From a phage: a stretch of DNA of 64,000 nucleotides. The notes beneath the pieces were generated by a model, which saw nothing but the letters and a program-made list of their open reading frames with translations, was not told the origin of the DNA and ran no database searches. Positions 23,800 to 58,890 of the stretch are shown piece after piece (within the stretch, counting starts at the first letter, position 1; each line of letters opens with the position of its first letter). The DNA lies in the sequence record PX880099.1. One strand, given 5' to 3'. Both the position numbers and the translations under genes were made by a program.

Positions 23800-23809
23800 G
23801 GTGAAACAA

Positions 23810-23971: not shown

Positions 23972-24020
23972 TAGTAGAAAACGAGATCCCGCAAACCATT
24001 ATTATTGTCGAGCGTACAGC

Positions 24021-24407: not shown

Positions 24408-24413
24408 AAAGTA

Positions 24414-24470
24414 TTGACACAGATCGCCAGTGTGCTAATATTTACCACGTAGGGCGGCAATGGTGCCGCC
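24414..24470 (+). promoter_or_regulatory. PeSL-like cassette 21
   Basis: TTGACA-16-TAATAT, hairpin GGCGGCA-ATGG-TGCCGCC. Confidence 0.65.
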
Positions 24471-24488
24471 GATAATGAGGAAAATAAA

Positions 24489-24788: not shown

Positions 24789-24796
24789 TCAACAAA

Positions 24797-24812
24797 GGGG
24801 CGGCAACGCCCC
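24797..24812 (+). other. GNRA-loop hairpin (GGGGCG-GCAA-CGCCCC), intergenic
   Basis: Same design as 25079-25094; no T-tract, so RNA stability or processing element rather than a classical terminator. Confidence 0.45.
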
Positions 24813-24832
24813 ACATCAGAAAGGAAAAGATT

Positions 24833-25069
24833 ATGAGTATTGCAACAGTATTAAACGCCGTTAAAACCGCTGAATCATCCGGCTTGCATGTTGAGCTTAT
24901 AGATCAACCAGGTGGCGATCTCCTTGTCCAGGTTTACCCGCCGAAAGTAGGGGATGATTATTATTGGGCTTATTCTGATACGTTCGAACAAGTAGACACG
25001 AAAGCGATCACGGCTTTTATTTTAAAAGCTATTGAAGAAAATAACTTTCATCATAACATCAATCAATAA
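24833..25069 (+). CDS. small early protein
   Basis: 78 aa ORF, SD AAAGGAAAAG. Confidence 0.55.
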   Translation: MSIATVLNAVKTAESSGLHVELIDQPGGDLLVQVYPPKVGDDYYWAYSDTFEQVDTKAITAFILKAIEENNFHHNINQ

Positions 25070-25078
25070 ACCATAAGC

Positions 25079-25094
25079 GGGGCGGTAACGCCCC
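25079..25094 (+). other. GNRA-loop hairpin (GGGGCG-GTAA-CGCCCC), intergenic
   Basis: Paralogous to 24797-24812. Confidence 0.45.
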
Positions 25095-25123
25095 ATTAAA
25101 CGCAATAGGAAGAGGATAGACGC

Positions 25124-25414
25124 ATGAAAAACATGATCGCAGTAGTTGCCCTAGTTGTTGGTATTAACGCGCCTGTACTGGCTAATGAGTTGTCAGAATC
25201 CATCACGCTAACCGATATCAACGCAATAAACCGGATCGGCGTTAATTATCGCCTATGCCTTGCCGCTAAAACTTTCCAGGACGGCACGACAGAATACCAC
25301 GGATTCGAGGGTATCCGCTGCGGTGAGCTTGCACGCGACCTTAAAGAAGATCCAGACCTTGAGGCCATACCGATGACCGTAAACGGTAAAGCTTACGTAA
25401 ACCGCCAACAATGA
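25124..25414 (+). CDS. secreted small protein (signal peptide)
   Basis: MKNMIAVVALVVGINAPVLA signal-like N-terminus. Confidence 0.55.
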   Translation: MKNMIAVVALVVGINAPVLANELSESITLTDINAINRIGVNYRLCLAAKTFQDGTTEYHGFEGIRCGELARDLKEDPDLEAIPMTVNGKAYVNRQQ

Positions 25415-25545
25415 GAAAGGTAATCATCACAATGGGGATCGTAGTAGCAACGCTGGCGCTTATCCCCTTCATGGTTGAACATGTGCTGATCAGTGTTGTC
25501 CTTGTAGTCAGTGACCTATTGGAAACGGTTGGCACCTGGTTTTAA
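25411..25545 (+). CDS. hydrophobic micro-protein (44 aa)
   Basis: Hand-translated MRKVIITMGIVVATLALIPFMVEHVLISVVLVV..., ATGA-coupled. Confidence 0.35.
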   Translation: MRKVIITMGIVVATLALIPFMVEHVLISVVLVVSDLLETVGTWF

Positions 25546-25719
25546 GATAATAAATAGGGCTTGCAATAGTCCTATTTTTTGTTATACTTATTGAACGGGC
25601 GGCACCTGGGAGCAGGTGAAGATAATCACCGGAAGATCCCGCTATATATCGATAGCTAATACCTATCAAACAACAAAACATCAAAGAGATAAACTATCAA
25701 ATCTTTACAATCCTACCTA

Positions 25720-25778
25720 TTGACACCGGATCACGCTTACATTATTATTTATCACGTAGGGCGGGAATGTTTCCCGCC
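25720..25778 (+). promoter_or_regulatory. PeSL-like cassette 22
   Basis: TTGACA-16/17-TATTAT, perfect hairpin GGCGGGAA-TGT-TTCCCGCC. Confidence 0.65.
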
Positions 25779-25796
25779 TGATTTAGGAGTCATATC

Positions 25797-26477: not shown

Positions 26478-26487
26478 GATTATACAA

Positions 26488-26507
26488 GGGCGCACTAAGC
26501 GCCCTTT
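26488..26507 (+). terminator. terminator-like hairpin
   Basis: GGGCGC-ACTAA-GCGCCC followed by TTT. Confidence 0.5.
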
Positions 26508-27036: not shown

Positions 27037-27051
27037 TTGACAACAAAACAA

Positions 27052-27077
27052 GGGCGCACCAAGCGCCCTTTCTTTTT
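27052..27077 (+). terminator. rho-independent terminator
   Basis: GGGCGC-ACCAA-GCGCCC followed by TTTCTTTTT; closes the PeSL gene cluster. Confidence 0.65.
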
Positions 27078-46127: not shown

Positions 46128-46150
46128 AACCCGCTTCGGCGGGTTTTTTC
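46128..46150 (+). terminator. strong rho-independent terminator
   Basis: AACCCGC-TTCG-GCGGGTT followed by TTTTT; same hairpin recurs at 50869-50890 on the other strand. Confidence 0.7.
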
Positions 46151-46174
46151 ATATCTGTAGCAATAGGAGGTCGT

Positions 46175-46405
46175 GTGTTAAATAAAATCGAAGAAGGTTG
46201 TATGGCATTTTTGGTAGATAACCCGTTTCCCTTTATGGTTAAGGTCCATGTAGGAGAGTATTTAGGTTATGACGAATGGGATTGTAGTATCAATAGTGAA
46301 ATGCACCACTACCAACCAACAATACTTAAGACGGATCAAATGGCGCGTATTACAGTAGAGGATGAATTGATCATTGAGTTATACGAGAGAGCACTACACA
46401 AGTAA
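46175..46405 (+). CDS. hypothetical protein (GTG start)
   Basis: 76 aa ORF, AGGAGG before GTG. Confidence 0.45.
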   Translation: MLNKIEEGCMAFLVDNPFPFMVKVHVGEYLGYDEWDCSINSEMHHYQPTILKTDQMARITVEDELIIELYERALHK

Positions 46406-46450
46406 GCTAGAACCCACCTAAATCGAACAGAGACGCTCTAAAATAGAAAA

Positions 46451-46479
46451 GGCACCCACTTGGGTGCCTTTGTTTTATT
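46451..46479 (+). terminator. terminator at the convergence of plus and minus blocks
   Basis: GGCACCC-ACTT-GGGTGCC followed by TTTGTTTTATT. Confidence 0.6.
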
Positions 46480-46747
46480 CTTCGTTAGATTGCGTCTCAG
46501 ACGCGTTAAATTCGGTTTCAGTACAACTTGCTAGGTAACTTATATTTTGCATCACTACGACTACAGGTGTTTGAAGTTTATCTTCTAGCCCCGCAGCCAC
46601 TTGAGCCAAGGCATTATCAATATTTGATTTCCTAACGCCTGTTCCATGTCCTGTTGCCAAGTAAAGATTACCTTCCCCTTTTTGTGTAGCATTAGCAAAG
46701 TAGTAAACGTAATGTGCAAGGTAGTAATCACGGATTTCTTCAGTCAT
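46475..46747 (-). CDS. hypothetical protein
   Basis: 90 aa ORF, SD AGGAG. Confidence 0.5.
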   Translation of the reverse strand: MTEEIRDYYLAHYVYYFANATQKGEGNLYLATGHGTGVRKSNIDNALAQVAAGLEDKLQTPVVVVMQNISYLASCTETEFNASETQSNEE

Positions 46748-46758
46748 TTTATTCTCCT

Positions 46759-46781
46759 AATAAGAAAGGGGCCGAAGCCCC
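46759..46781 (-). terminator. terminator-like hairpin GGGGC-CGAA-GCCCC
   Basis: On the minus strand followed by TTTCTTATT; identical stem-loop recurs at 58868-58886. Confidence 0.5.
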
Positions 46782-46790
46782 TTGAGTGGT

Positions 46791-47606
46791 TTATTTGTTT
46801 AAGTGGTCTTCGACCATTTTAATGAAACCTTCATTGCTGAAGGCTGTTGCAGCTTTTTCTCGGTAAACAAAAACTCCACGATCTTCATAGAGAAGTGTTT
46901 CTTCGTAATTAACTCCAGGGTTAACTACAACCATTTTTGTACCCATACTAAGCGCAGGGAATAATTCCCAATTAAAATTGATAACTTGGTTTGAACATCC
47001 TACTACTACAACCAAATCTTGCATGGTCAAAGTATCGAACAAGTGAGCCATATCTGCATACAAAGGTGCAGCCTCACCAAAAAATACAACATTAGGCTTC
47101 ACCCAGTTATAATCATCTATGTTTATACTATTGTAACCAATATCTACCAGTGTTTTGTAATCTCCAGGATGCATACGGTAAACTACTTCAGGAAGATATC
47201 CGTGCACGTGAATAACAGAATCTCTGTCTACACCTGCTCGCTCTAATAGATCATCAACGTTTGTCGTCAAGTTTACTACTTGGTTAGGATATTCCTTAAA
47301 CCACTTTGCTATTTGAATATGTGCAGCATTAGGTTGTACATCTTTAAGCTCAACACGTCTTTTGTTATAAAATTCGTGTGTTTTGGCATACAAATCCATA
47401 CCGTTCTCGTCTACACCACCGACCACTGGAAGATCTGGAGATGTTCTAACACGATAACCTGCTTGGAAAGCTCCAATATCGCAGACCTCTTCTAAATCAT
47501 ATTCTTCCCATAAGGCACGACCACTATCGGTGTCTGTTCGGAATGTTCTAATCCCACTATCTGCACTTAAACCTGCACCGCTTACAAAAATCACTCGTCT
47601 TGGCAT
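46791..47606 (-). CDS. Sir2-family (sirtuin-like) NAD-dependent enzyme lacking an obvious zinc ribbon
   Basis: 271 aa; FVSGAGLSADSGIRTFR, TTNVDDL, VIHVHG, VVFFGE, VVVVGCS. Confidence 0.7.
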   Translation of the reverse strand: MPRRVIFVSGAGLSADSGIRTFRTDTDSGRALWEEYDLEEVCDIGAFQAGYRVRTSPDLPVVGGVDENGMDLYAKTHEFYNKRRVELKDVQPNAAHIQIAKWFKEYPNQVVNLTTNVDDLLERAGVDRDSVIHVHGYLPEVVYRMHPGDYKTLVDIGYNSINIDDYNWVKPNVVFFGEAAPLYADMAHLFDTLTMQDLVVVVGCSNQVINFNWELFPALSMGTKMVVVNPGVNYEETLLYEDRGVFVYREKAATAFSNEGFIKMVEDHLNK

Positions 47607-48082
47607 TCTTCCTCCTCATAATCATCATAATCTTCGTCATCCAAATCGTACACTTCGTCTTGAGAATAACTCACTTCAAAGTAAATATCAAACTCCGCAA
47701 ACAAACGTAGAATGTTGGACATGCTATAATAATTATCGTAGGCAGATTCAGCTTCATAGTAAACATAAAGCAAATGGTTAGCCTTATCATCTTCCAAATA
47801 TTTCCCGTCTGCATACGCATAGTCTGCATATGCTTTACCTGCATCTTCCACAAGAGAACGATCAAGCAGAGTAGGAAATGGTTTCTCTTTTTCTTTTAGT
47901 TTGCTCACCAACCAGTGTGCAATATCATGCCAATCTGCATCCTCTCCGCTGAAGCAGCTTGCGATTTCGCCAAACTTGGCATCTCCTAAGTCTCCGCTAA
48001 TAGTGATCATGGTTGAACTATTGTAACCACAAGTTTCGCAATTTGAACAACTGTTGTGCACATGAATTTCTACTTGAAACAT
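47591..48082 (-). CDS. hypothetical protein with Cys-rich N-terminus and acidic C-terminal tail
   Basis: 163 aa ORF, SD AGGAGGGAAT. Confidence 0.5.
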   Translation of the reverse strand: MFQVEIHVHNSCSNCETCGYNSSTMITISGDLGDAKFGEIASCFSGEDADWHDIAHWLVSKLKEKEKPFPTLLDRSLVEDAGKAYADYAYADGKYLEDDKANHLLYVYYEAESAYDNYYSMSNILRLFAEFDIYFEVSYSQDEVYDLDDEDYDDYEEEECQDE

Positions 48083-48140
48083 ATTCCCTCCTATAAAAGA
48101 AAAGCCCCCTGAAACAGGAGGCTTTGTTCAGATATCGGCA

Positions 48141-48794
48141 CTATACCAGACTTTCAAGGTATTTGTCAAGGGCTTCTTGATCACCTTGACAAACATAGCA
48201 ACGGAAGTCTTGAGCCGAAGGTTGTTTATTTTCATCCCAGTCCCAATAAACATTACCCTTATAACGTGAACCAGGAAACTCAAAAGAGGCTGTATGTGTA
48301 ATGTATCCTGGGCCACCAGTGAAATCACAGAATGAGAATTGGGGGTATGCCGCCTTTACTGCCTCAATAAACCAAGCTTTACGATCTAAAGCTTCATTGA
48401 TGCTATACGCATGTCTCTCCATTTCTTCCCACGTTTTCCAGACACTTCTTTCATCAGGAGAAAAGACAAGCCATTCTGGAAGGTAGAGAGTGTCATAGTA
48501 ATCATCATATTCGATCTCGGAGGCGCACGAGGCTGACTCCTCCAGTCTTGAGTAATCAAAAGCAGAATATACCCACCAACCATCTTCCAGTAAGGCTTTG
48601 ATAGGGACGAAGCCTTTATCAGCATATTGATCGAATTGTTTGACACGGTGGCTTGTGCAGTCTTCAAACTCACATTCTAAACGATATGACCCTTTTCGAC
48701 GAGCCTCAAGACCGTGTGTACTGAAAATAACAACACTTCCTTCACCATCATTACGATCTACTTGATAAGCAACTACTGGTTTTGAATTTGACAT
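48141..48794 (-). CDS. hypothetical protein
   Basis: 217 aa ORF, SD AAGGAGAAA. Confidence 0.55.
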   Translation of the reverse strand: MSNSKPVVAYQVDRNDGEGSVVIFSTHGLEARRKGSYRLECEFEDCTSHRVKQFDQYADKGFVPIKALLEDGWWVYSAFDYSRLEESASCASEIEYDDYYDTLYLPEWLVFSPDERSVWKTWEEMERHAYSINEALDRKAWFIEAVKAAYPQFSFCDFTGGPGYITHTASFEFPGSRYKGNVYWDWDENKQPSAQDFRCYVCQGDQEALDKYLESLV

Positions 48795-49477
48795 TATTTC
48801 TCCTTATCTAGAAGATTATTAGACAAAAACACTGCACGGGCAAAACCACGTGCTGTTAGTGATCTAAGTTGTTTTGTTTTTGCACTAGCTCCACCTAAGC
48901 TTTTCCAACCCCAGAAGCAGCCTATATGATCTACTGGTTTCTTCACTGGTTGAACAAAACCATTGCCGTGCCAAATACAAGTTTTCTTTGTATACCCATC
49001 ACGGGTAGGCATTTTAGGATGAAAGCTTCCTTCCTCTTCAAACAAATACCCACCATACTCATAAGGATCAAAGTAAAAATCGGGTTTACGCCATAAGGTT
49101 GAAAGTTTACCTACTGGGTTCTCAATCATCCAAGGAACATTATATTTGTTACCCAAAGCTTCCACTACACGAATATTAGCTAAAGCTTCATCTAATTCCT
49201 CTGTGCTACGTTCGTGTTTGCTACCACTACCTGCTAACATAGTGCAAGGTGGAAATCCAAAAATAATATCGGGTTTAGGTATCCCATAATCTTCAGGGTT
49301 GAATGTAGAATCTATCCAGGCATTCACATAGGTTATGTTTGGGTGCTCCATCCTAACCTCGTATTTACCGTGATCCCCTTCATCAGCGTTTACACAAAAA
49401 CACTTGTGACCTGCTTCGGCATAACGTAACACCATGATCCCAGATCCGTCAAACATAGACAAAACTGTTTTACTCAT
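48794..49477 (-). CDS. compact DNA (cytosine-5)-methyltransferase-like protein
   Basis: 227 aa from ATG (MSKTVL) after GGAGGGG; motif I LSMFDGSG, motif IV FGFPPC, ENPVG. Confidence 0.55.
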   Translation of the reverse strand: MSKTVLSMFDGSGIMVLRYAEAGHKCFCVNADEGDHGKYEVRMEHPNITYVNAWIDSTFNPEDYGIPKPDIIFGFPPCTMLAGSGSKHERSTEELDEALANIRVVEALGNKYNVPWMIENPVGKLSTLWRKPDFYFDPYEYGGYLFEEEGSFHPKMPTRDGYTKKTCIWHGNGFVQPVKKPVDHIGCFWGWKSLGGASAKTKQLRSLTARGFARAVFLSNNLLDKEK

Positions 49478-49865
49478 TACCCCTCCATTCAAGACAAGCC
49501 ATAACTTTACGCCAATCACTTTCTGTAAGAAAAATCTCGTTTGCTTTCTTCCACAAATCTAAATCGTGAAGGGTTGGAATACGATATGTTAGTTCACAGA
49601 ATCTATGCTCTTCTTCTGTAATATAACCAAAATGCAGAGCCACATCGTGAAACCAACACCAACCATGCATCTCTCGAACAACATGGTCATGTTGAGACAT
49701 TGTTTTATGCCGTAAACCTAACCAACAAGGAACGGATACTTTAGTAGTCTTTAATCTGTGATCAACAGTATTAGAGTATTCAATAATAGCTGTCAGTTTC
49801 AATCGTGCTTTTTCTAAATCCTCATGCGTCACTTTGAAATAACTTTCTGAAAGATATCCACACAT
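49470..49865 (-). CDS. hypothetical protein
   Basis: ATG (MCGYLSE) after GAAGGAGG; track start is TTG. Confidence 0.5.
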   Translation of the reverse strand: MCGYLSESYFKVTHEDLEKARLKLTAIIEYSNTVDHRLKTTKVSVPCWLGLRHKTMSQHDHVVREMHGWCWFHDVALHFGYITEEEHRFCELTYRIPTLHDLDLWKKANEIFLTESDWRKVMACLEWRGNE

Positions 49866-49866
49866 A

Positions 49867-50808
49867 TTAATAACCTCCTTCAAAAGGCTTTACTACATGT
49901 TGATTAGCTTTAAAACGTTCAACATAGTCGTTTTCACCCATGTTTTCATATAGTTTAGTAACAACATAAAAGTTTTCCCAAGCATATTCCCTAAACCAAC
50001 CACTAGTGATGGATGTGCAGACTTTAGATAAAGCCATTATAAAACTTTGCTTAGGGGTTGGACCTCCGATCTCTTCACCGAAAGGAATTTGTGAACGTTC
50101 CAAAGCCAAAACACACGCTTCTTCATAAACACCTAACAGGCGCACATGTTTTGGTTGAGCAAAAAACTTTTCTTTGCTGGTCATAACTTCACTTCCATCT
50201 TTCATATAAGATTTATATGCTGGAGCATCCATTACCGCGATTGCTTCATGGATAGAATCATGATCATAAACATACGGAACCTCATCACCTTTAAAGAAGT
50301 CTTTACTTTTTACGTTTAAGTTTGGATGAGAGTAAGTGTATGTTTCTTTCTCACGCAACTCATAAATACTCTTAAGATTTTCTGGGATCTTTGCGCCCAG
50401 TGATCGCATGAAATGAATATCTTTCATAGTTTTAAAGAAGTGAGGACTATCCTTTTTAAAACGATGACTCATTTTAAGAAGGTAGAGCACATCTAAAGGA
50501 GCAACAACGTGTCCAGCGTAAGTTCGACGAATATCATCAGAGTCTTCACAATAACTAATCAAAGCTTCTGTGCTATCTCCTTGAGAAGCAATATCGTATT
50601 CCAAATGTGCACCAGCTATCATTTTGACATGGCCTTTGTTCCCTTTACGTTCTACAAGTTCAACAAACTCATCTTGAGAGAACATTTTTGATAATTCTTC
50701 CCACTCTTGTTCTGTACACAGGTAATCTAGATCTACACAAGGGCGATACAAGTCTTTTCCCATGTCCATAGCATGAATTTGTAATGCACGGCTACCAATT
50801 AACACCAT
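49867..50808 (-). CDS. hypothetical protein, fold unassigned
   Basis: 313 aa ORF, SD GAGGAGAAA; N-terminal IGSRAL...DLD loosely reminiscent of a nucleotidyltransferase motif. Confidence 0.5.
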   Translation of the reverse strand: MVLIGSRALQIHAMDMGKDLYRPCVDLDYLCTEQEWEELSKMFSQDEFVELVERKGNKGHVKMIAGAHLEYDIASQGDSTEALISYCEDSDDIRRTYAGHVVAPLDVLYLLKMSHRFKKDSPHFFKTMKDIHFMRSLGAKIPENLKSIYELREKETYTYSHPNLNVKSKDFFKGDEVPYVYDHDSIHEAIAVMDAPAYKSYMKDGSEVMTSKEKFFAQPKHVRLLGVYEEACVLALERSQIPFGEEIGGPTPKQSFIMALSKVCTSITSGWFREYAWENFYVVTKLYENMGENDYVERFKANQHVVKPFEGGY

Positions 50809-50838
50809 AATATTTCTCCTCTATTGGTTGATAGGTTA

Positions 50839-50868
50839 AGTTTATCAAGCTTCCAGATTCCTGTCAAT
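50839..50868 (-). promoter_or_regulatory. sigma70-type promoter (TTGACA-17/18-TAAACT) on minus strand
   Basis: Reverse complement TTGACAGGAATCTGGAAGCTTGATAAACT just downstream of the terminator. Confidence 0.45.
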
Positions 50869-50890
50869 AAAAAACCCGCCGAAGCGGGTT
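50869..50890 (-). terminator. rho-independent terminator (ACCCGC-TTCG-GCGGGT plus T-run)
   Basis: Same sequence as the plus-strand terminator at 46128-46150. Confidence 0.65.
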
Positions 50891-50898
50891 ATTATTTA

Positions 50899-51171
50899 CT
50901 AACACATTGAGGAAGAAGAGATCCAAACACCTCTTGTGGTTAAACCATTTTCATCCAACTCTACACCATAATCTTCACAAATGAAATCAATATAGTGATC
51001 TGCGGCTGGCGTTCCTGTAGGGTAATAAGTTTCTCCGTTACCGTAGTCACCTATCCAAGCTTGTTCCTGGAACTGTTCACAAAGTTCTTCAATTTCCTTA
51101 CGAAACTTTCTTTGTGCTTGTTCCATCTCTTTAACTTTCTTTTTTATCAGCAGTTCGCCTTCAGATTCCAC
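50899..51171 (-). CDS. paralog family C member 1, small acidic protein (GTG start)
   Basis: C-terminus GVWISSSSMC shared with two neighbours. Confidence 0.5.
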   Translation of the reverse strand: MESEGELLIKKKVKEMEQAQRKFRKEIEELCEQFQEQAWIGDYGNGETYYPTGTPAADHYIDFICEDYGVELDENGLTTRGVWISSSSMC

Positions 51172-51180
51172 AATCTCTCC

Positions 51181-51399
51181 TTAACAGCTACTACTGTGCC
51201 AAACGCCTTGAGAATTAACGACGAAACCATCATCACCTTCACCATAACAAGAAGAGGATTGCCAATCTTCAAAACAGATTGCGTCATTTTCTAAACTAAG
51301 ACCAAAACCAGCATCTTCAGCTTCTTTTGTAAGTTCGTCCACTAAAGCCATAATAGCTTGGGCTTTTTCAGTTAATTCTTCAACATTACGATCACTCAT
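51181..51399 (-). CDS. paralog family C member 2, small acidic protein
   Basis: ATG (MSDRNVEE) after GGAGGAG; C-terminus GVWHSSSC. Confidence 0.5.
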   Translation of the reverse strand: MSDRNVEELTEKAQAIMALVDELTKEAEDAGFGLSLENDAICFEDWQSSSCYGEGDDGFVVNSQGVWHSSSC

Positions 51400-51674
51400 T
51401 AGTATTTCTCCTCCGGTTGGAAAACTGAACGACAAGCCCACATACTAGCTTCTTTTAAATGTTTAATAGCACAACGGATTTGATCAATACGTTCGTATGC
51501 AAGATCTAATTCTTTTTCTGTGCCGTCAAAAGACCCATGATATGCTTCACAATACTCTTCCTCTAAAGCTTTGAAGATTAAACCTAAACGCTCTTCTGCA
51601 TCTTTAATAGCGTTAACCTTGCCAATCTTATCGTCAGTATGCGCCTTATAACCTTTGATATCTTCGATTCCCAC
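51399..51674 (-). CDS. hypothetical protein (GTG start)
   Basis: GTG after TAGGAGG; track start is TTG. Confidence 0.4.
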   Translation of the reverse strand: MGIEDIKGYKAHTDDKIGKVNAIKDAEERLGLIFKALEEEYCEAYHGSFDGTEKELDLAYERIDQIRCAIKHLKEASMWACRSVFQPEEKY

Positions 51675-51685
51675 TTTACCTCCTA

Positions 51686-51883
51686 TTAACAACTTAAAGA
51701 AGATGGATGCCAATTTGTTCCAGTATTCTCATTTTCATCTTCTGGATCATAATAACCACCCATCCCATATTCAGGGGAGAAACGGAAACCTTTACCAGTC
51801 TCATCTGCTAACTGCTCTGCTTCCGCTAAAGCCTCATAAGCTGCTTTTACGGCTTCTTCTACTGTTTTAAACTTGGTCGTCAT
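51686..51883 (-). CDS. paralog family C member 3, small acidic protein
   Basis: C-terminus NWHPSSLSC; SD GGAGAGGAG. Confidence 0.5.
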   Translation of the reverse strand: MTTKFKTVEEAVKAAYEALAEAEQLADETGKGFRFSPEYGMGGYYDPEDENENTGTNWHPSSLSC

Positions 51884-52157
51884 AAAATTTCTCCTCTCCT
51901 AAAGACATGTTGACATGAAATGCACGATATGTAAATTCGTTGTCCGTTGTGTTTGAATAAAACTCAAATTGAACAACACCGTCTTGAGAAGACAGATACA
52001 TGCCAATTTGAACTGTTCCTTCTGGTACCAGGTAAGCATACTCTGGACGTAGTGTTACATTGTAAAAATAAAGTTCCCCAACACCCATTTCATCCCAAGC
52101 TTCCCAAGCGGTAACGAAGTTACTTTCAAAACTTGTTACTGATCCGAACTCTGCCAT
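51867..52157 (-). CDS. hypothetical protein
   Basis: 96 aa ORF, SD GAGGAGG. Confidence 0.5.
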   Translation of the reverse strand: MAEFGSVTSFESNFVTAWEAWDEMGVGELYFYNVTLRPEYAYLVPEGTVQIGMYLSSQDGVVQFEFYSNTTDNEFTYRAFHVNMSLGEEKFYDDQV

Positions 52158-52648
52158 AAAACCTCCTCAATCTTGTAGTTTGACTCCATCTCCAACACAT
52201 TTCCACGAACGTCTCTCCGAAGAAAGGCATAAGCTTTATTAGGTATTGTAGACTCATATTTAACCATATCTGGCACAGCAAAAGATACTACTACTCCTGC
52301 TGGGCTTCTGTCAAGAGCCTTATTAATATTTCTAAGGATATCGTTAGCCAAGATTTCTGCCAATTCTCCAAGAACAGTTTCGGTTATATCTTTATATCCC
52401 ATTAAGTATTTGTTGATATCTTTCATCTCTGTATTGTTCAGAGTATAGTCCAAAGGATAGAAATTCAAAGCGGAGTCACTTTTATGTGTCCACATGAAAT
52501 GCACCCGATCCGAGCAGAATCGTAACCCTCTGTGAAGAATATCTTCTACAACAGGGAGAATTTCTTTTGTCACATCATTAACCATGTTGTAATCTAAGAT
52601 TTCTGCCAAGTTTGTTCTTTGTTCACCACGTTTACGTTTAGGAATCAC
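52136..52648 (-). CDS. hypothetical protein (GTG start)
   Basis: 170 aa ORF. Confidence 0.45.
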   Translation of the reverse strand: MIPKRKRGEQRTNLAEILDYNMVNDVTKEILPVVEDILHRGLRFCSDRVHFMWTHKSDSALNFYPLDYTLNNTEMKDINKYLMGYKDITETVLGELAEILANDILRNINKALDRSPAGVVVSFAVPDMVKYESTIPNKAYAFLRRDVRGNVLEMESNYKIEEVLWQSSDQ

Positions 52649-53219
52649 TTGTTATTGCCCTCATTACCAAAGGTCGTAGAAAATCGTAAATCTCTTGTTT
52701 TGTTTTCCCACGAATGTTTAAACAAGGAACATTATTGGCTTTAGCTATCTTCCAAGCCGTAGCTGTTCCACCTTTTGCATCTCCATGTTTATCAGTATTA
52801 GCACAAGCCAACAAGAAACATGATGGAGCAGGATTCTCCAAATCTCTACCTAACACTTGATGCACATTACGTTGGTGCAATTTTCTAGCACCCTGCTTAA
52901 GCTTTTCATAGGCTGGGTGAACATCTTTGATCCATTGCACAGAGATAGCATAGTTCATTGTATCTGGTTTTGCAAGAACAATAACATCCCCTGGAATCTG
53001 ATTACCTTTGAAATTTTCCCAAGGAACATAAATCTCCTTGTTAGTAGGATTTTCAGACTCTTGGACACCTGTTTCAAAAGCAGAATCACTACCCTCTGCC
53101 TTCCCAGACCTTAATTTAAACCCAAGGTTTGAAAGCCATTTCCCTATGCCTACCATCAAAGCCCACTCTTCTTCGGATATGTCTCTACTTCCAACTCCCG
53201 TATAGAACAGTTCTGCCAT
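52638..53219 (-). CDS. DprA/SLOG-like Rossmann-fold protein
   Basis: ATG (MAELFYTGVGSR) after GAGGTG; TGVGSRDIS and LRSGKAEGSDSAFETG resemble the DprA nucleotide-binding core. Confidence 0.4.
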   Translation of the reverse strand: MAELFYTGVGSRDISEEEWALMVGIGKWLSNLGFKLRSGKAEGSDSAFETGVQESENPTNKEIYVPWENFKGNQIPGDVIVLAKPDTMNYAISVQWIKDVHPAYEKLKQGARKLHQRNVHQVLGRDLENPAPSCFLLACANTDKHGDAKGGTATAWKIAKANNVPCLNIRGKTKQEIYDFLRPLVMRAITSDS

Positions 53220-53226
53220 AATCACC

Positions 53227-53535
53227 TCAACAAGTAATTTCAAAAGGTGTATAGGGTTCCGTATTTCTCATGATCCAAGGACTGCTAGGATTGCTCGGAT
53301 CATAAGGACCGAAAGGTTTTATGGTAGGTTGTGTTTCTTTCTTCTGAATCTCTTCAAAAATACGACGAAGTTCAGAATATTCTTGATCCACCATAAGATT
53401 CGGTGCATCTGATTCTACAGCTTGCAGGTTATTTTCCTTAAAAACAACCTCACGAACAAGATTAACATCCTCTGTTTCTAAGATAACTTCTTTACGGATA
53501 TTACCTACACTTTGAATAATTGTAATCTTATACAT
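53227..53535 (-). CDS. hypothetical protein
   Basis: 102 aa ORF, SD GAGGAGG. Confidence 0.5.
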   Translation of the reverse strand: MYKITIIQSVGNIRKEVILETEDVNLVREVVFKENNLQAVESDAPNLMVDQEYSELRRIFEEIQKKETQPTIKPFGPYDPSNPSSPWIMRNTEPYTPFEITC

Positions 53536-54278
53536 TAATCCTCCTCAAGAGTTGAATAAAATTGAAGACCACCGTCCATATCGAAATAAGCAAATGTTAA
53601 GTTATTATTGAACACAGATCCAGTATCCATATAAACACGATTCGCATTGATAATAGGTGTTTTTACATAAGAGTGTCCATGAAACACATAATCCACACCC
53701 ATCACAACAGGAAGTTTCATTCCCTCTTTAGCACAGTCTACCATGTCTCTGTCCCACATAAGTGCTTCAGCAAAACGGTTTTCCTGTGTTTTTGTCATCT
53801 TCAAAATGTATTCTGGAATATCTGTTACAGGGAGATATTCCAAAGAAGATGGATACCCACCATGAATAAACGCAAGTTTCATGCCTCTGTAGTTAACAAT
53901 GAGAACAACAGGTAAATCTTCTGTCATCATTGCTAAGGCTGTAGCTCCTTCTTCACCACATTCTTCAAGGACCGTATATCCTCCATTTTGATACCAACAC
54001 TCGAAGTAGCTACGATCTCCTTCCAGCATACCTTTAATCATCATATCTTCATGATTTCCACGAACAGCGTAGCGATTGTGTTTACGAGTAAATTCTAAAA
54101 CACAACGAAAGTTTTGCTTTCCACGGTCAGTAAGATCTCCTAAAGATACAACTACATCTGTATCTCGGATACCTAACTTTGCCTTTCCTTTTTCATACAA
54201 ATTATAACAACCGTGTAGATCTCCAATTATAAAAAGATCTTGATCGCTTTTAACAGTAATTTCTCTGTGTATGATCAC
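53535..54278 (-). CDS. Ser/Thr protein phosphatase (calcineurin-like metallophosphoesterase)
   Basis: GDLHG, GDLTDRG, GNHE motifs; GTG start after GAGGAGGA. Confidence 0.8.
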   Translation of the reverse strand: MIIHREITVKSDQDLFIIGDLHGCYNLYEKGKAKLGIRDTDVVVSLGDLTDRGKQNFRCVLEFTRKHNRYAVRGNHEDMMIKGMLEGDRSYFECWYQNGGYTVLEECGEEGATALAMMTEDLPVVLIVNYRGMKLAFIHGGYPSSLEYLPVTDIPEYILKMTKTQENRFAEALMWDRDMVDCAKEGMKLPVVMGVDYVFHGHSYVKTPIINANRVYMDTGSVFNNNLTFAYFDMDGGLQFYSTLEED

Positions 54279-54604
54279 TTATCCTCCTCAAAATCTAAGA
54301 AAATAAAAATATTTACCTTTCCTTCAATCTCTTGTTCTAAAACAAGATCGGCAAATTCTGCATAAGCTTTCTCTTCAACTTTTTCAATATGTTCTGCGGC
54401 ATCTTTAAAAGGTGTATCCCCATCCACCTTTACTAATAAGAAAAGAGATCGCATTTCGACGCTTTTACTGTTACGAGGAAGGAAATCTACAGCTTCAACA
54501 ATTCTCCAACCCAAATAGCCAGGGGTTTTATGAATCTCCCCTAAATACTTTTCTAAGATTTTACGACCCTCGTCGATAAGGGCTTGTTCTGTAGTAATTT
54601 CCAT
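54275..54604 (-). CDS. hypothetical protein
   Basis: 109 aa ORF, SD GAGGAGGAAGG. Confidence 0.5.
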   Translation of the reverse strand: MEITTEQALIDEGRKILEKYLGEIHKTPGYLGWRIVEAVDFLPRNSKSVEMRSLFLLVKVDGDTPFKDAAEHIEKVEEKAYAEFADLVLEQEIEGKVNIFIFLDFEEDK

Positions 54605-54614
54605 TCCTTCCTCC

Positions 54615-55205
54615 TCAAATTATTAACGAAACCGCATGACTAAATCTTGGTTCAGATATAACCTCTGCTACAGTCACATATGTATCGTGCAGCCAAAAAG
54701 ATTCTACTCTACAAACACAAATACCGTTGATAATGAAATCTACACAGGATTTATTATTTTCGCACACCTGTTGACTATAAACAACCCCTAAAGAGTCATA
54801 AAGTGATCTCACTGTTGCTATCATTTCATCTGTTTCGTCTTCCTGTGAAACAAAGAAAACGAATACAGACAAGTTATTAGCGAAAGTATTGCTATTCTCT
54901 ACTTCAACCGACTTACAAGGTAAAAAGGAGTAATATTTACCGCTAGGTATCAATTTCGCCTCAACCTGGTTAAGTATGCTTTGAGATGGTTTTGTTACAT
55001 AAAAAAGATTTTCTGTTGGGTTTTCAACATTACTCCTTACTATGCAACGAGTGGGGTTCGAAGGATCAAAAACATGATCGAAATCGACACACACAGGTAA
55101 GTTAACAACTTTAAACTTTTTGCTAAGAATGCTTACTGCTGTAAAAATCAAACCAGCATTTATTTTGCCAGTGAAAGTTGAACGCATAACTACTCCTCGG
55201 ATCAT
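54615..55205 (-). CDS. hypothetical protein
   Basis: 196 aa ORF, ATGA-coupled. Confidence 0.5.
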   Translation of the reverse strand: MIRGVVMRSTFTGKINAGLIFTAVSILSKKFKVVNLPVCVDFDHVFDPSNPTRCIVRSNVENPTENLFYVTKPSQSILNQVEAKLIPSGKYYSFLPCKSVEVENSNTFANNLSVFVFFVSQEDETDEMIATVRSLYDSLGVVYSQQVCENNKSCVDFIINGICVCRVESFWLHDTYVTVAEVISEPRFSHAVSLII

Positions 55206-55396
55206 TCTACCAAAGAGAATTCCGCCTCTTCCAGGTAGATTACAGACCTTGTTGCATGATATTTAACGCTCCAGAAATTACCTTCGCGCCGTAAAAGTAT
55301 CTCATTCACATCAAGATTGCTTAGAAAAACCATATAACTTAAAGCTTGTTGACGCGTTGAGAATTGTTTCTCTAAAAGTTCTTCTCCGCTCTGCAT
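55202..55396 (-). CDS. hypothetical protein
   Basis: 64 aa ORF, SD AAGGAGGG. Confidence 0.5.
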   Translation of the reverse strand: MQSGEELLEKQFSTRQQALSYMVFLSNLDVNEILLRREGNFWSVKYHATRSVIYLEEAEFSLVE

Positions 55397-55407
55397 AATC
55401 CCTCCTT

Positions 55408-55434
55408 AAAATACTCCCTCCGAAAAGGGAGTAT
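55408..55434 (-). terminator. terminator-like hairpin
   Basis: ATACTCCC-N8-GGGAGTAT; followed on minus strand by ATTTTAAGG. Confidence 0.4.
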
Positions 55435-55441
55435 AAGTATA

Positions 55442-55645
55442 TCACGTAGTTGTTATGTTGTCTTCTTGGATACTAGAATCCACTTCTGCAAACATATCTT
55501 CTGCACTGTAATTATTTCCAGTCCAGCGTGATAAAAGGACAGCACCAATCTCTTTTGCATGAGATTCGGACTCCGCATAAACGTTAGTCCCAGTGTCACC
55601 TTTTTTCTTTTCATGTGCATAAATGCAGTAATAATTGTAAGCCAT
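55442..55645 (-). CDS. hypothetical protein
   Basis: 67 aa ORF. Confidence 0.5.
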   Translation of the reverse strand: MAYNYYCIYAHEKKKGDTGTNVYAESESHAKEIGAVLLSRWTGNNYSAEDMFAEVDSSIQEDNITTT

Positions 55646-55881
55646 TAGTCTTCCCAGTCATTGTCCTCGGTAGAGTGAACCAAAGCTCGCACGATACCAC
55701 CGTAATCTACTGCCTGATTTGCAGCATGTTCGGCATAAACTTCAATGGCTTTTTTGAAGAAAAGAGCAGTAGCTGCTTCAATATTATCCATTTCGCCATC
55801 TACATCAGTAGAAAGTGAAAGGTTGAGGCTTTCATCTACTTCATCAAAATCAATAGCCACTGTCATAATTAGTTTACCCAT
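55645..55881 (-). CDS. hypothetical acidic protein
   Basis: 78 aa ORF, SD AAGGAGTG. Confidence 0.5.
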   Translation of the reverse strand: MGKLIMTVAIDFDEVDESLNLSLSTDVDGEMDNIEAATALFFKKAIEVYAEHAANQAVDYGGIVRALVHSTEDNDWED

Positions 55882-55893
55882 AGTTCACACTCC

Positions 55894-56403
55894 TTAAACA
55901 AAATAAAATGGTTGAGAGAGGCCCAAACGATTCTTTGGGTCGTATACATACCAAGCGTATGCTGTCTTATCTGTTCCACCTGCAACAAACGAAGGCCGTT
56001 CTGAAAGGACTATAAGGTTCGTTGGTGGATTCTTTTGATGGAACTCTCGTCGTTTCTTTGACTCCAAGAAGCCCAACCGAAGAAGATAAATACAAACATC
56101 CGCCTCTTTTAAGCTCTTTTCCAAGAACTCCATTGCTAACTTGAATGGAGGATTTGTGATTATAATGTCGGGACGATTTTCCCATTCATGACTAAAATAA
56201 TCTTTACCTTCTTCAAGTTCACAATATTCTGAACCTTCAGGAAAATGGCGATAAATCGCTTCAGCTTCACCTCTACAAGGTTCTGCAAAAACCCAACCTT
56301 CTTCCTTTAGATTTTTGAAATCTATAACACTAAACAAACTATTGATTGCTTTTTGCGGTGTCGGATAATAATCGCTCGTTGGGCGATCATAATCTAATGC
56401 CAT
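55894..56403 (-). CDS. small SAM-dependent methyltransferase-like protein with NPPF motif (candidate N6-adenine or N4-cytosine DNA MTase)
   Basis: 169 aa; IIITNPPF catalytic-type motif; SD AGAGGAGA. Confidence 0.45.
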   Translation of the reverse strand: MALDYDRPTSDYYPTPQKAINSLFSVIDFKNLKEEGWVFAEPCRGEAEAIYRHFPEGSEYCELEEGKDYFSHEWENRPDIIITNPPFKLAMEFLEKSLKEADVCIYLLRLGFLESKKRREFHQKNPPTNLIVLSERPSFVAGGTDKTAYAWYVYDPKNRLGLSQPFYFV

Positions 56404-56821
56404 CTAAAATCTCCTCTTTTGTAATATTATCCAACTCTTTAAAGGATGAAATCTCATTTAATAATCCTATTTGATCAGCCTCTAGAGGATAAGTGTTTTT
56501 ATCTGTTTTTCTAGACAGAATATCTTCAACAAACTTATCAATAGCCAAAGAAGAATCATAAAATTTTAAAAGTTGGTAATCCATAGGAGATATTTTGTCA
56601 TCTCTTAGAAATATTTCTAACATGTTTTCAGGAGTATCGTGGTTTAGTTTATGTTCACCAAAAATATTAACTTCGTAAACATCTTTGCCAAACCAACGTT
56701 TTTTCTTTTCAACAGTATAGGTTTTTGCCACCAGACCATCTAAACAGTTTCTTGCCCTCTTACATGTTTGACGGTAAGAGTGGATAGCGCCTTCAACAAA
56801 CTTAGCAGGAACTTGTAACAT
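56387..56821 (-). CDS. hypothetical protein
   Basis: 144 aa ORF, SD TAGGAGA. Confidence 0.5.
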   Translation of the reverse strand: MLQVPAKFVEGAIHSYRQTCKRARNCLDGLVAKTYTVEKKKRWFGKDVYEVNIFGEHKLNHDTPENMLEIFLRDDKISPMDYQLLKFYDSSLAIDKFVEDILSRKTDKNTYPLEADQIGLLNEISSFKELDNITKEEILDGIRL

Positions 56822-56837
56822 TATTAATCTCCTATGT

Positions 56838-56861
56838 TTAAGAAATGCCCCCGAAGGGGCA
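56838..56861 (-). terminator. terminator hairpin GCCCC-TTCG-GGGGC (minus strand)
   Basis: Followed on minus strand by TTTCTTAAA. Confidence 0.5.
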
Positions 56862-56866
56862 GTTTG

Positions 56867-57559
56867 TTAAATAGCGGTTCCTTCGAAATCCGCCACATTT
56901 ACGAGATTAATATTTTCAGATTTAGAAGTCAAGTTGTTTTCTGCAACAGATTTTTCTTCAGTATCCGCCTCGTTACCTGCCACGTTACGAGGTTCTTCTT
57001 CACCGTAGGGATTACCGAATTTCAAAAGATTGATTAATTCTTCTTTGGAGAAGTTTTCTAAATCATCGTCTGTTAATTCAATAATCTCGTCTTGTTCTTC
57101 AATAAATGTTTCACCACCAGAAAAAGCATCTCGCTTTTTAGCTACTTCCATAGCCTGTTCTGGTGTTGCCCCTGCATCAAGAGCAGCTAAAGCAAAGTCT
57201 GACCCACTCCCCACTGCATAATATTCTTCATCAATCGGATATGCACGTGTTGGGTTGTTACCTTCGTGCAGGAAAATACGTCCGTCTGGATGAACAACAA
57301 GTGCAATAAACTCTTCATCTTCTTTGTCTGGATCAGAATGAATCATCAAACCAGGGACAGCATCGCGTGCTGCTTCGCACTGTAGATTTTGTTCAAACCA
57401 TTGAAAGAAAGAAAGCACGGAGGTCAGACGACCAGCACCACCTACAAGGTAATCTCCAATTTTTCGGACCTTTTTGAAATTAATAGAATCTACACGTCCA
57501 CCAAAAGTTACCTTACCATCACTCAAAATCTTATTTTTGGTTGCAATAATTGTCGTCAC
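56867..57559 (-). CDS. HslV/proteasome-beta-like Ntn hydrolase with acidic C-terminal extension
   Basis: N-terminus M-TTIIATKNKI (Thr right after initiator), KVRKIG, GGAGR, VGSGSDFALAA pattern; GTG start after GAGGAGG. Confidence 0.55.
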   Translation of the reverse strand: MTTIIATKNKILSDGKVTFGGRVDSINFKKVRKIGDYLVGGAGRLTSVLSFFQWFEQNLQCEAARDAVPGLMIHSDPDKEDEEFIALVVHPDGRIFLHEGNNPTRAYPIDEEYYAVGSGSDFALAALDAGATPEQAMEVAKKRDAFSGGETFIEEQDEIIELTDDDLENFSKEELINLLKFGNPYGEEEPRNVAGNEADTEEKSVAENNLTSKSENINLVNVADFEGTAI

Positions 57560-58059
57560 TATTCTTCCTCCTCTGTTAATGTTTTAAGAACCGCTTTCCC
57601 GCCATTCACATATTTGCAGATGTATTCTATCGCACGTAGTGTCTCTTTGTCAACAAAAATTTGATCAGACGTTGCGAGCGGGTTATTAAGAAGATCACTG
57701 CAATCACGAACAAGCAGTGCTTTCTTATTAAACAAATTACTTAAGAACAGTAACTTCGCCTCTTCTTCTGTTATATGCAGAAGGCTAGGATCGGAGCCAG
57801 CTATTCCTATTATACAATCAAACAAGCTTTCTTTACTATCAGAAAGTTCTTGAAAATGGTTTAAAAGCCAATCTTCTCCTAGACACCAACATTTAAACAT
57901 TTCCAGTTTATCTCGGAGGGTCATATTCTCTAAAGTAAGAGCAATCTCTTTTTCAATATGGTTTACACAAATTTGACGAAATTCGTTAGGTTTTACGAGT
58001 CCCGTTTGATAGCACTCATCTATACCGCTTCTTCCGATAGCTATTGTTGCTACACCCAT
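57559..58059 (-). CDS. hypothetical protein
   Basis: ATG (MGVATIA) after AAGGAGG; track start is TTG. Confidence 0.5.
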   Translation of the reverse strand: MGVATIAIGRSGIDECYQTGLVKPNEFRQICVNHIEKEIALTLENMTLRDKLEMFKCWCLGEDWLLNHFQELSDSKESLFDCIIGIAGSDPSLLHITEEEAKLLFLSNLFNKKALLVRDCSDLLNNPLATSDQIFVDKETLRAIEYICKYVNGGKAVLKTLTEEEE

Positions 58060-58094
58060 CAATCCTCCTTATAAATGGCTTCCCTGCCATGTTA

Positions 58095-58853
58095 TTAAAT
58101 AAACACTTCAGTAATCAGTTTAGACAAACGTCCACGTTTATTATCGTCCGTTGTCAGTTCAACGTATCCAATAAAATCTACAATTGGCTCACGAACACCT
58201 TCTTCATTTTCTGGATACAAAAGTTCCAAAATTTGATGCAGACCATTGCTACGTTTTTTAATTGCATATGTCTGGCGAACATCGCCTAATACAATAACAT
58301 GCGTATTAATACCTGCACGTTCAATAAGAAGTTTAAGTGTTTCTGTTGACATAAGTTGTGCTTCGTCAATAATGACGATTGTATTATCCAGGGTAGCCCC
58401 CAACAAATAGTTAGGAATATTCAATTCGATCTTACCTGATCCAATATCGTTTTCCAATTTGTTGGCTGTCATGAATTGCTGGAAAATACGTTTTGTAGAT
58501 TCATAGTGTGCTGCTAGTTTATCTGTTTTATCCCCAGACAAGAAACCAATCTGGTCATCTCCGACTTCAGTAGGGTTCTTAATAAAAAGTAGTTTACGGA
58601 AGTCTCCTGAACGAAGCATCTGCAAAGCTTTCCATAAAGCAACAGAGGTTTTACCAGTCCCTGCCGGAGCATTTACAACAGTCAGATCATTCCAAATCAT
58701 ACTTTGAACAATCTTATTTTGGTCCCCTTCAGGCATAAATTCATCTAAACGGTAATCGTCATTACCTACCGCTTTTGCTGCATAACGGCTTTCAATCTTT
58801 GCTGAATTAGCCAGTTTCTGCCGTTGTGTTTTAGCTGCGGTTTTATTTCCCAT
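58095..58853 (-). CDS. phoH: PhoH-like ATPase
   Basis: APAGTGKTSVAL Walker A, IVIIDEAQLMS Walker B; ATG (MGNKTAA) after AAGGAG; track N-terminal extension overlaps a terminator hairpin. Confidence 0.8.
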   Translation of the reverse strand: MGNKTAAKTQRQKLANSAKIESRYAAKAVGNDDYRLDEFMPEGDQNKIVQSMIWNDLTVVNAPAGTGKTSVALWKALQMLRSGDFRKLLFIKNPTEVGDDQIGFLSGDKTDKLAAHYESTKRIFQQFMTANKLENDIGSGKIELNIPNYLLGATLDNTIVIIDEAQLMSTETLKLLIERAGINTHVIVLGDVRQTYAIKKRSNGLHQILELLYPENEEGVREPIVDFIGYVELTTDDNKRGRLSKLITEVFI

Positions 58854-58867
58854 AGTAGCACTCCTTT

Positions 58868-58886
58868 TAGAAGGGGCCGAAGCCCC
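58868..58886 (-). terminator. hairpin GGGGC-CGAA-GCCCC downstream of lysozyme gene
   Basis: Identical stem-loop to 46759-46781. Confidence 0.45.
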
Positions 58887-58890
58887 TTTA

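Follow-up and report, generated by a model that had tools for sequence, protein, structure and literature searches.

Identical terminator-like hairpins at distant loci of a phAPEC8-like phage and their relation to mosaic junctions

The canonical C(UUCG)G terminators of Escherichia coli and phage T4 have a GC stem of 6-8 base pairs (bp), a UUCG loop closed by a C-G pair and a U-tract, and they lie in sense orientation just past a stop codon. The UUCG tetraloop, known first from T4 mRNA, has been called 'extraordinarily stable' (PMC4371310). Repeated hairpins are also found in the PeSLs of T4-like phages, small stem-loop cassettes that serve as sites of homologous recombination by which ORFans are shuffled (Arbiol et al. 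2010, PMC2839356; Comeau et al. 2014, PMC4122927). Here we analyse 64,000 nucleotides (nt) of phage DNA (sequence record PX880099.1; this whole stretch is termed the window) in which three hairpin sequences recur at distant positions. A first-pass annotation took these seven hairpins for reused terminators, and read the reuse as a sign of modular cassette exchange. We refer to each of them by a single coordinate (46128, 50873, 46766, 58871, 21413, 26486 and 27050; Table 1).

The hairpins resemble the canonical terminators in stem, C-G-closed UUCG loop, U-tract, position and orientation, and the 22-mer common to 46128 and 50873 is found in E. coli chromosomes and prophages as well. Nothing essential separates the two groups, although 58871 and 26486 have poor U-tracts and may attenuate transcription or stabilise mRNA. 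Our preferred reading, to which we assign a probability of about 0.8, is that the seven are independent Rho-independent terminators (two of them perhaps attenuators) that are identical through convergence and not through copying or swapping. As textbook examples of convergent terminator design they matter little in themselves, but they carry the warning that identical short hairpins are no evidence of shared ancestry or of exchange.

By contrast, the resemblance to PeSLs is limited. As in PeSLs, 50873 combines a terminator with a sigma70-like promoter. However, the copies have only 18-24 nt in common (36 nt for 21413 and 27050) and not ~100 bp, no hairpin other than 50873 adjoins a promoter, and they lie among conserved genes and mostly away from indel junctions, so that they do not form cassettes of the PeSL kind.

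By its sequence the window belongs to Phapecoctavirus, i.e. to a phAPEC8-like E. coli myophage of the subfamily Stephanstirmvirinae. Queries of 7 kb and 24 kb are 97-99% identical to ~65 Phapecoctavirus genomes; close relatives include vB_EcoM_Schickermooser, ESCO5/ESCO13, DE16, DIJ07P1 and phAPEC8, with ~98% identity to Schickermooser, ESCO5 and phAPEC8. More distant are phiWec181 (~75% nucleotide identity) and the Justusliebigvirus phages phi92 and PHB05 (~70%). Per-base identity was mapped against Schickermooser, phAPEC8, ESCO5, ECML-183-2, REC, phiWec181, phi92 and PHB05; relatives numbered with an L are IMG/VR contigs. Matches of the WPEC1-6 records (155-161 kb) to the window are scattered over 16-20 separate places, and these records are rearranged with respect to every other relative, perhaps through misassembly or an unusual permutation. 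As they are unreliable for synteny, WPEC1 (PV659873) was left out of that comparison.

Position and anatomy of the repeated hairpins

All seven hairpins are present where the first-pass annotation placed them. The sequence AACCCGCTTCGGCGGGTTTTTT at 46128-46149 (+) has a perfect inverted match of 22 nt at 50869-50890 (-). AAGGGGC-cgaa-GCCCCTT forms an 18-nt direct match between 46766-46783 and 58871-58888 (hairpin cores 46768-46781 and 58873-58886), and AAGGGCGC-aNYaa-GCGCCCTT occurs at 21413-21433, 26486-26506 and 27050-27070. None of the three motifs was matched in 100 shuffles of the window, so the repeats are far beyond chance by comparison with shuffled sequence. Random sequence is however the wrong null for repeats of terminators, and against a null of functional terminators (see below) the repetition is not significant.

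Every one of the seven is intergenic, in sense orientation and downstream of a stop codon, and none falls inside a gene once annotated starts supported by a Shine-Dalgarno (SD) sequence are used. An apparent overlap of 58871 with the open reading frame (ORF) 58095-58904 vanishes, the PhoH-like gene starting at ~58853 (58852/58853) and not at 58904. The hairpins fold at -12.7 to -16.8 kcal/mol (z -2.1 to -6.9), as stable stems. A U-tract follows in five, being U6 in 46128 and 50873, UUUCUUAUU in 46766, and UUUCUUUUU in 21413 and 27050. The GenBank records of Schickermooser or phAPEC8 carry terminators called by ARNold at the equivalents of 46128, 46448, 46766, 48101, 50873, 55411, 21413 and 27050; there is no ARNold call at 58871 or 26486 in Schickermooser. 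The elements are thus already known in kind and partly annotated, and the description of them as terminator hairpins is well founded in their stable GC stems, intergenic position, sense orientation, U-tracts (5/7) and existing annotation.

The hairpins had also been described as lying on both strands. The ACCCGC copies are indeed on opposite strands of the DNA, but each is sense to its own genes, because the copies belong to two convergent gene blocks. Judged from transferred annotation and ORF maps there are three transcription blocks, 1-8235 (-), 8236-46460 (+) and 46461-64000 (-). The GGGGC pair lies within the last of these, so the RNA reads GGGGC-UUCG-GCCCC, in the same tetraloop class as the ACCCGC pair. 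A C(UUCG)G loop of this stable class is found at 46128, 50873, 46766, 58871 and 56846, and a census of 40-64 kb gave ten sense-strand intergenic hairpins, six with a UUCG loop, and in five of those six the hairpin is a perfect C(UUCG)G. With its ANYAA loop of 5 nt, the GGGCGC family falls outside the UNCG and GNRA tetraloop classes.

These features are those expected of terminators in a phage transcribed by the host RNA polymerase, with a G/C stem of 6-8 bp and a hyperstable loop placed just past a stop codon. The polymerase would pause at the U-tract while the nascent GC hairpin forms in its exit channel, and the transcript would then be released; the hairpin left at the 3′ end would shield the message from exonucleases. 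The likeliest role of the two copies that lack a proper U-tract (58871 and 26486) is attenuation of transcription or stabilisation of the mRNA end upstream.

In 50873 the U-tract runs directly into the -35 hexamer of a promoter-like sequence (TTTTTTATTGACA), so we predict a composite element at which one transcription unit is ended and the next restarted. TTGACA...TAAACT or TAGACT lies past the hairpin in phiWec181 and L129-L132 also, displaced by a 12-nt insertion. This predicted coupling is similar to that in promoter-coupled terminators (Fletcher et al. 2026, bioRxiv 10.64898/2026.08.19.745784). In the semi-synthetic construct of that study the DNA of the stem-loop supplies the -35, unlike 50873 where there is a separate TTGACA past the U-tract.

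Two further elements were noted close to 46128. An inverted repeat TAGGAT-AGTG-ATCCTA at 46099-46116 (+) lies in the same 91-nt intergenic region; in phiWec181 the flanks have diverged but the stem is kept, with the loop ACTG. Just upstream of the terminator, and overlapping the inverted repeat, is a promoter-like site at 46080-46108; such matches in the region number 67, barely above the 53.8 expected from shuffled sequence.

Conservation and probable convergence

Comparison with diverged relatives shows that the hairpins are kept at each locus. Those at 46128, 50873, 56846 and 46448 are unchanged in phiWec181, where the flanking genes are 65-80% identical, and the stems are intact in phiWec181, L129-L132 and phi92 with flanks ~70-78% identical. 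The phi92 counterpart of 46128 is AACCCGCTTCGGCGGGTTTT, ahead of gp036; at the 46448 site phi92 has a different hairpin in the same place. 26486 is kept in L278. The terminator 50873 precedes the orthologue of a 313-aa (amino acid) gene, with the same stem, in L129-L132 (70-78% amino-acid identity). At greater distance the stem changes but is retained; in L133-135 (53% identity) it is TCCCGC..GCGGGA, the outer pair having turned from A-U to U-A by compensatory change, and in L148-150 (42-44% identity) it is GGGCUC-UUCG/UCCG-GAGCCC. The counterpart of 55411 in phiWec181 and L129 has a different stem and a loop that contains UUCG.

Throughout the subfamily the hairpins at 46766 and 58871 have an invariant GGGGC/GCCCC stem while the loop switches between UUCG, UACG, GCAA, GUAA and GAAA. 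At 46766 the loop is UACG in phiWec181 and L129, and GAAA in L130, phi92 and PHB05; at 58871 it is GCAA in phiWec181 and L129, GUAA in L130 and L132, and GAAA in phi92. Each of the eight loops observed reads as UNCG or GNRA on the sense (minus) strand and never on the other, a pattern that indicates selection on RNA structure and fixes the functional strand. By these comparisons each copy is ancient and has descended vertically at its locus, where purifying selection for the structure of the RNA would have held it since before the genera of Stephanstirmvirinae split.

Strong conservation of a hairpin with switching of its tetraloop is what might be expected for a structural RNA, and the elements could be RNA-processing or stability elements or protein-binding sites in place of terminators. 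This applies especially to 58871 and 26486, where the tails are weak (UUCUAAAAGG and UUUAACGU, respectively) and ARNold makes no call, and similar tail-less intercistronic hairpins of the form GGGGCG-GNAA-CGCCCC lie at 24797 and 25079. However, orthologues in phi92 have a better U-run (UUUUAUAAGG), the switch of tetraloop class argues against sequence-specific recognition by a protein, and an Rfam scan of the whole window at the gathering threshold gave no hits. We consider this explanation unlikely, and prefer that of terminators.

How do independent terminators come to be identical? The copies are alike in the hairpin and the adjoining A/U tracts but not beyond, their flanks being unrelated. 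A C(UUCG)G loop with 4-5 G/C pairs and A/U tracts would allow only a few dozen good sequences, among which the ACCCGC and GGGGC stems are probably some of the commonest in nature, so the copies look identical because the design space of terminators is very small. The exact 22-mer is present in at least 120 IMG/VR contigs, of 30-67% GC, at loci that have only the motif in common with the window, and in at least 120 bacterial contigs of many phyla (from a scan with one genome per species) including Pseudomonas, Enterobacteriaceae, Burkholderiales and Bacteroidota. Near-matches occur in 5426/5426 complete E. coli genomes (median 8 places per genome); one example, AAACCCGCTTCGGCGGGTTTTTTT, adjoins a prophage 'DNA circularization protein' gene. 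The 18-mer AAGGGGCTTCGGCCCCTT is present in at least 120 viral contigs, and several unrelated contigs have two copies. GGGCGC-ANYAA-GCGCCC is rarer, being found in 12 stretches (4 from relatives, 8 unrelated).

An empirical null was constructed from 2.1 Mb of unrelated phage DNA found in the motif scans; removal of the selected instance left 38 other UUCG terminators. The commonest 5-bp stems among these are GGGGC (18%) and CCCGC (11%), giving a collision probability of ~0.096. For five UUCG hairpins ~0.9 identical pairs are expected and two are seen, with P(≥1) of 0.62-0.65 and P(≥2) of 0.15-0.18. Although the sample is small, it is clear enough that the repetition is what functional constraint alone produces. 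Exact reuse had been taken to support cassette exchange; with no homology past the hairpin, the same sequences in hundreds of unrelated phage and bacterial genomes and each copy conserved vertically, it does not.

Alternatively, the copies might be paralogous, having arisen through ectopic gene conversion inside the genome or from an old duplication. Such common descent would account for the GGGGC/GCCCC stem being at both loci throughout the subfamily, and for loops that match in the window and in phi92; in addition the GGGCGC family is comparatively restricted to the lineage and two of its copies agree at 34/36 nt. Set against this, the loops at 58871 and 46766 differ in phiWec181 and L129 (GCAA vs UACG) and in L130 (GUAA vs GAAA), and homology between the flanks of the copies is lacking. 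Agreement of the loops in only 2/4 lineages speaks neither for nor against concerted evolution of the two GGGGC hairpins. Identity can be explained without descent, since hundreds of unrelated genomes contain the same sequences. We regard this as very unlikely for the hairpins as a whole.

Several points nevertheless weigh against convergent terminators. A proper U-tract is missing at 58871 and 26486. The same loop is present at both GGGGC loci in the window (UUCG/UUCG) and in phi92 (GAAA/GAAA), which could hint at occasional gene conversion. Two identical pairs and a triplet per 64 kb are on the high side of the null, and that null contains only 38 independent terminators. GGGCGC-ANYAA is globally far rarer than the other motifs, and this, together with the 34/36 nt common to 21413 and 27050, makes common descent within the early region plausible. 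Lastly, termination at the hairpins, and attenuation at 58871 and 26486, are what we infer from sequence.

Table 1. Coordinates of the hairpins and associated features in the window. Hairpins are written as RNA, 5′ to 3′ on the sense strand.
Feature	Coordinates	Strand	Folding energy (kcal/mol)	Context and remarks
Early cassettes, ≥15 copies	16186..25790	+		Each before a small ORF; repeat families D1-D8
Terminator AAGGGCGC-AUCAA-GCGCCCUU + UCUUUUU (21413)	21413..21440	+	-14.7 (z -6.8)	After 48-aa gene 21260-21406; ARNold in Schickermooser
78-aa gene (24833-25069) and flanking tail-less hairpins	24797..25094	+		GGGGCG-GCAA-CGCCCC (24797-24812); GGGGCG-GUAA-CGCCCC (25079-25094)
Hairpin AAGGGCGC-ACUAA-GCGCCCUU, no U-tract (26486)	26486..26506	+	-14.7	After gene 26109-26477
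Terminator AAGGGCGC-ACCAA-GCGCCCUU + UCUUUUU (27050)	27050..27077	+	-16.8	After gene 26617-27036, end of early block; flanks unrelated to those of 21413; ARNold in Schickermooser
Predicted intrinsic terminator AACCCGC-UUCG-GCGGGUU + U6 (46128)	46128..46149	+	-13.7 (z -3.95)	45 nt past stop of gene 45802-46083, ahead of gene 46175-46405; ARNold in Schickermooser
Bidirectional terminator AAAGGCACCC-ACUU-GGGUGCCUUU (46448)	46448..46471	.	-19	Convergence of (+) and (-) blocks; annotated in Schickermooser, phAPEC8
Terminator AAGGGGC-UUCG-GCCCCUU + UCUUAUU (46766)	46766..46783	-	-12.7	Between Sir2 gene (46791-47606) and gene 46475-46747; left border of mosaic Sir2 module; ARNold in Schickermooser
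Hypervariable three-gene module: Sir2, 163-aa gene, 217-aa gene	46791..48794	-		Alleles reassort gene by gene
Terminator AAAGCCUCCUG-UUU-CAGGGGGCUUU + UCUUUU (48101)	48101..48125	-		Inside mosaic Sir2 module, in conserved island 48071-48215 between divergent alleles
Promoter-like TTGACA-N17-(TG)ATAAACT	50839..50867	-		10/12 matches, extended -10; fused to U-tract of 50873; putative function
Predicted intrinsic terminator AACCCGC-UUCG-GCGGGUU + U6 (50873)	50869..50890	-	-13.6 (z -4.27)	After gene 50899-51171; abuts sigma70-like promoter; ARNold in Schickermooser, phAPEC8
UUCG-loop terminator AUACUCCCUU-UUCG-GAGGGAGUAU + UUUAAGG (55411)	55411..55434	-		ARNold in Schickermooser
C(UUCG)G terminator UGCCCC-UUCG-GGGGCA + UUUCUU (56846)	56846..56861	-		Kept in phiWec181, L129
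Hairpin AAGGGGC-UUCG-GCCCCUU, weak U-tract (58871)	58871..58888	-	-12.8 (z -2.1)	Between lysozyme gene (58891-59391) and PhoH-like gene; with its weak U-tract, probably attenuator or mRNA-end stabiliser

Mosaic junctions and the Sir2 module

In the modular evolution of tailed phages, mosaic junctions lie at gene borders. The first-pass annotation proposed that the repeated terminators mark such junctions, as they would if they were PeSL-like recombination linkers, i.e. portable joints for the swapping of cassettes. Automated segmentation of five close genomes over 40-64 kb gave 15 junctions at which identity shifts or an indel begins. Two of the 15 lie no more than 40 nt from one of the ten terminators (0.8 expected, P ~0.19), whereas 9-11 lie as close to a gene boundary (5 expected, P ~0.004), with or without a terminator there. 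No junction was found at 46128, 50873, 58871, 21413 or 26486 in any compared genome, these including Schickermooser, DIJ07P1 and B15 at 21413, and Schickermooser and B15 at 26486. Only 46766 adjoins a breakpoint, at ~46803. The statistics indicate that mosaic junctions follow gene borders and not terminators, with 46766 a single partial exception, and the proposal that the hairpins mark recombination junctions is not supported for these seven.

The stretch 46.8-48.8 kb is the only strongly mosaic part of 40-64 kb. The allele combinations of its three-gene module are A-X-P in the window, A-Y-P in Schickermooser, B-X-P in phAPEC8, B-Z-Q in ESCO5 and REC, and B′-Y-Q in ECML, making the Sir2 locus a hot spot of gene-by-gene reassortment. 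The body of the Sir2 gene is nearly identical in another genus. Against phi92 and PHB05 the identity per 100-nt window is 94-100% over ~46900-47400 and 88-98% out to ~47600, and that of the protein is 96%, whereas the allele of the congeners ESCO5, phAPEC8 and REC is only ~60% identical to that of the window. A gene body that is near-identical across genera and ~60% identical within the genus points to recent exchange between genera. Both ends of this exchange are inside the gene, at ~46900 (~120 nt in) and ~47500-47600, and not at the hairpin.

Of the module's four gene borders, two have a terminator (46766, and 48101 which is not among the original seven) in a short conserved island next to divergent alleles. 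Junctions near them are at ~46803 (ESCO5, ECML and REC), ~48070-48078 (several genomes) and 48134 (phiWec181). The other two borders, at ~47600 and ~48740, are also junctions and have no terminator. As in gene-boundary mosaicism generally, the junctions of the module are thus tens of nt from gene borders, terminator or not.

The two islands are consistent with linkers, as are the putative promoter fused to 50873, the near-identical hairpins that flank single-gene indels in the early region of the same genome (see below) and the precedent of the PeSLs themselves (PMC2839356; PMC4122927). Against these stand the absence of junctions at five of the hairpins, the lack of enrichment near terminators, the ends of the Sir2 exchange within the gene, and the short extent of the identity between copies compared to the PeSL motif. 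For the seven hairpins recombination linkers are therefore improbable, and we retain the interpretation that they are convergent terminators.

Two other variable stretches were observed. A short divergent allele at 51400-51640 (-), within the gene 51399-51713, is ~65% identical over ~250 nt compared to 98% around it; the divergent patch is found in ESCO5, ECML-183-2, REC and phAPEC8, and has no terminator nearby. The segment 61225-63097 (-), with the genes for glucose-1-phosphate thymidylyltransferase and dTDP-glucose dehydratase of the rhamnose cluster, is missing from ECML-183-2, and presumably also from Mt1B1_P17, dw-ec and ABPW7, judged by their 92% coverage. Both ends of this indel are ~12 nt or less from gene borders.

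Early-region cassettes and other features

A different set of repeats occupies the early region. Each cassette comprises in order an A-rich tract, TTGACA-N17-TAnnnT, TATCACGTAGG, a GC stem-loop, an SD sequence and ATG. The stem-loop takes several forms, including GCGGCA-AUGG-UGCCGC, GCGGGAA-UAG-UUCCCGC and GCGGCGGAAUGGUCCACCGC, several of which are compensated. Individual copies fold at -10.7 to -15.9 kcal/mol. RNAalifold found no consensus structure in a MAFFT alignment of 15 cassettes, because indels between the hairpin variants misalign the 3′ arm. The stem-loop would fall within ~10 nt of the 5′ end of the transcript, and may be a 5′ stabiliser of the mRNA or a regulator site. With no tRNA called by ARAGORN anywhere in the window, tRNA fragments can be dismissed as a source of the repeated GC hairpins at 16-26 kb.

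Comparison of the early region with Schickermooser, B15 and DIJ07P1 reveals many indels, and many of the junctions are inside cassettes; in MRostami too the indel junctions lie within early cassettes. (The MRostami-2023b indel at 19.8-23.6 kb was discarded, as there is a run of N at its junction.) Schickermooser has extra single ORFs at window positions 23603-23669 and 24435-24500, each between two copies of the cassette. The corresponding single cassettes of the window (at 23.65 and 24.45 kb) are chimeric, with the crossover once inside the shared hairpin GTAGGGCGGCAATGGTGCCGC and once at the -35 hexamer. Similarly, phage B15 (MG065650) is without the gene 24833-25069 and has one chimeric hairpin left, its left flank from one copy and its right flank from the other. 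The B15 event is a clean deletion or insertion from hairpin to hairpin.

Both the cassette structure and the indel junctions of PeSLs are therefore found in the early cassettes (16186-25790), which give single-ORF indels with chimeric cassettes, and the indel junctions are also found in the GGGGCG-GNAA-CGCCCC pair. Unlike PeSLs, where the stem-loop is between or over the promoter hexamers, that of the early cassette is downstream of the -10, at the 5′ end of the transcript. Exchange mediated by hairpins, as envisaged by the first-pass annotation, is thus not supported for the hairpins to which it was attributed, but does apply to these different repeats at 16-26 kb, in single-gene indels with a crossover in the hairpin. 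A search of the accessible literature found no description of such cassettes for Phapecoctavirus or Stephanstirmvirinae.

It is conceivable, though we would hold it doubtful, that Stephanstirmvirinae have a PeSL-like shuffling system of their own, in which GC hairpins are short sites of crossover and the seven terminators are occasional members and not mere look-alikes. Such a system would include the early 5′ stem-loops (at least 15), the tail-less GGGGCG-GNAA-CGCCCC hairpins and possibly the Sir2 islands at 46766 and 48101. A phage lineage other than T4 with PeSL-style, hairpin-flanked indels of single genes may be useful to phage genomicists, as may the Sir2 locus, where the gene body is near-identical across genera. 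Both bear on how accessory genes, possibly those of defence or counter-defence, are traded while transcription units remain unbroken.

DIJ07P1 (OZ035743, 142.9 kb) is without a 4.37-kb stretch of early genes, 22637-27008, that ends ~20-40 nt before the 27050 terminator. The hairpin was considered as the site of crossover and rejected; the ends lie in an imperfect microhomology of ~22 nt (GATCT.C.CAA..TATGAAGCG), each within a coding region, and two ORFs would be joined by the deletion.

Two stretches of the window, 15000-16150 and 27100-29650, are without convincing ORFs. In the former there is a 72-nt AT-rich direct repeat, with copies at 15209-15280 and 15347-15418 that are 82% identical, and the latter spans the point at which the Schickermooser record begins and ends. 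The large ORF 12439-13899 contains three direct repeats of ~225 nt (TGGGAGCAATATAAAGAAGAAG...) at 12457-12989 (+), so its protein has a repeated domain.

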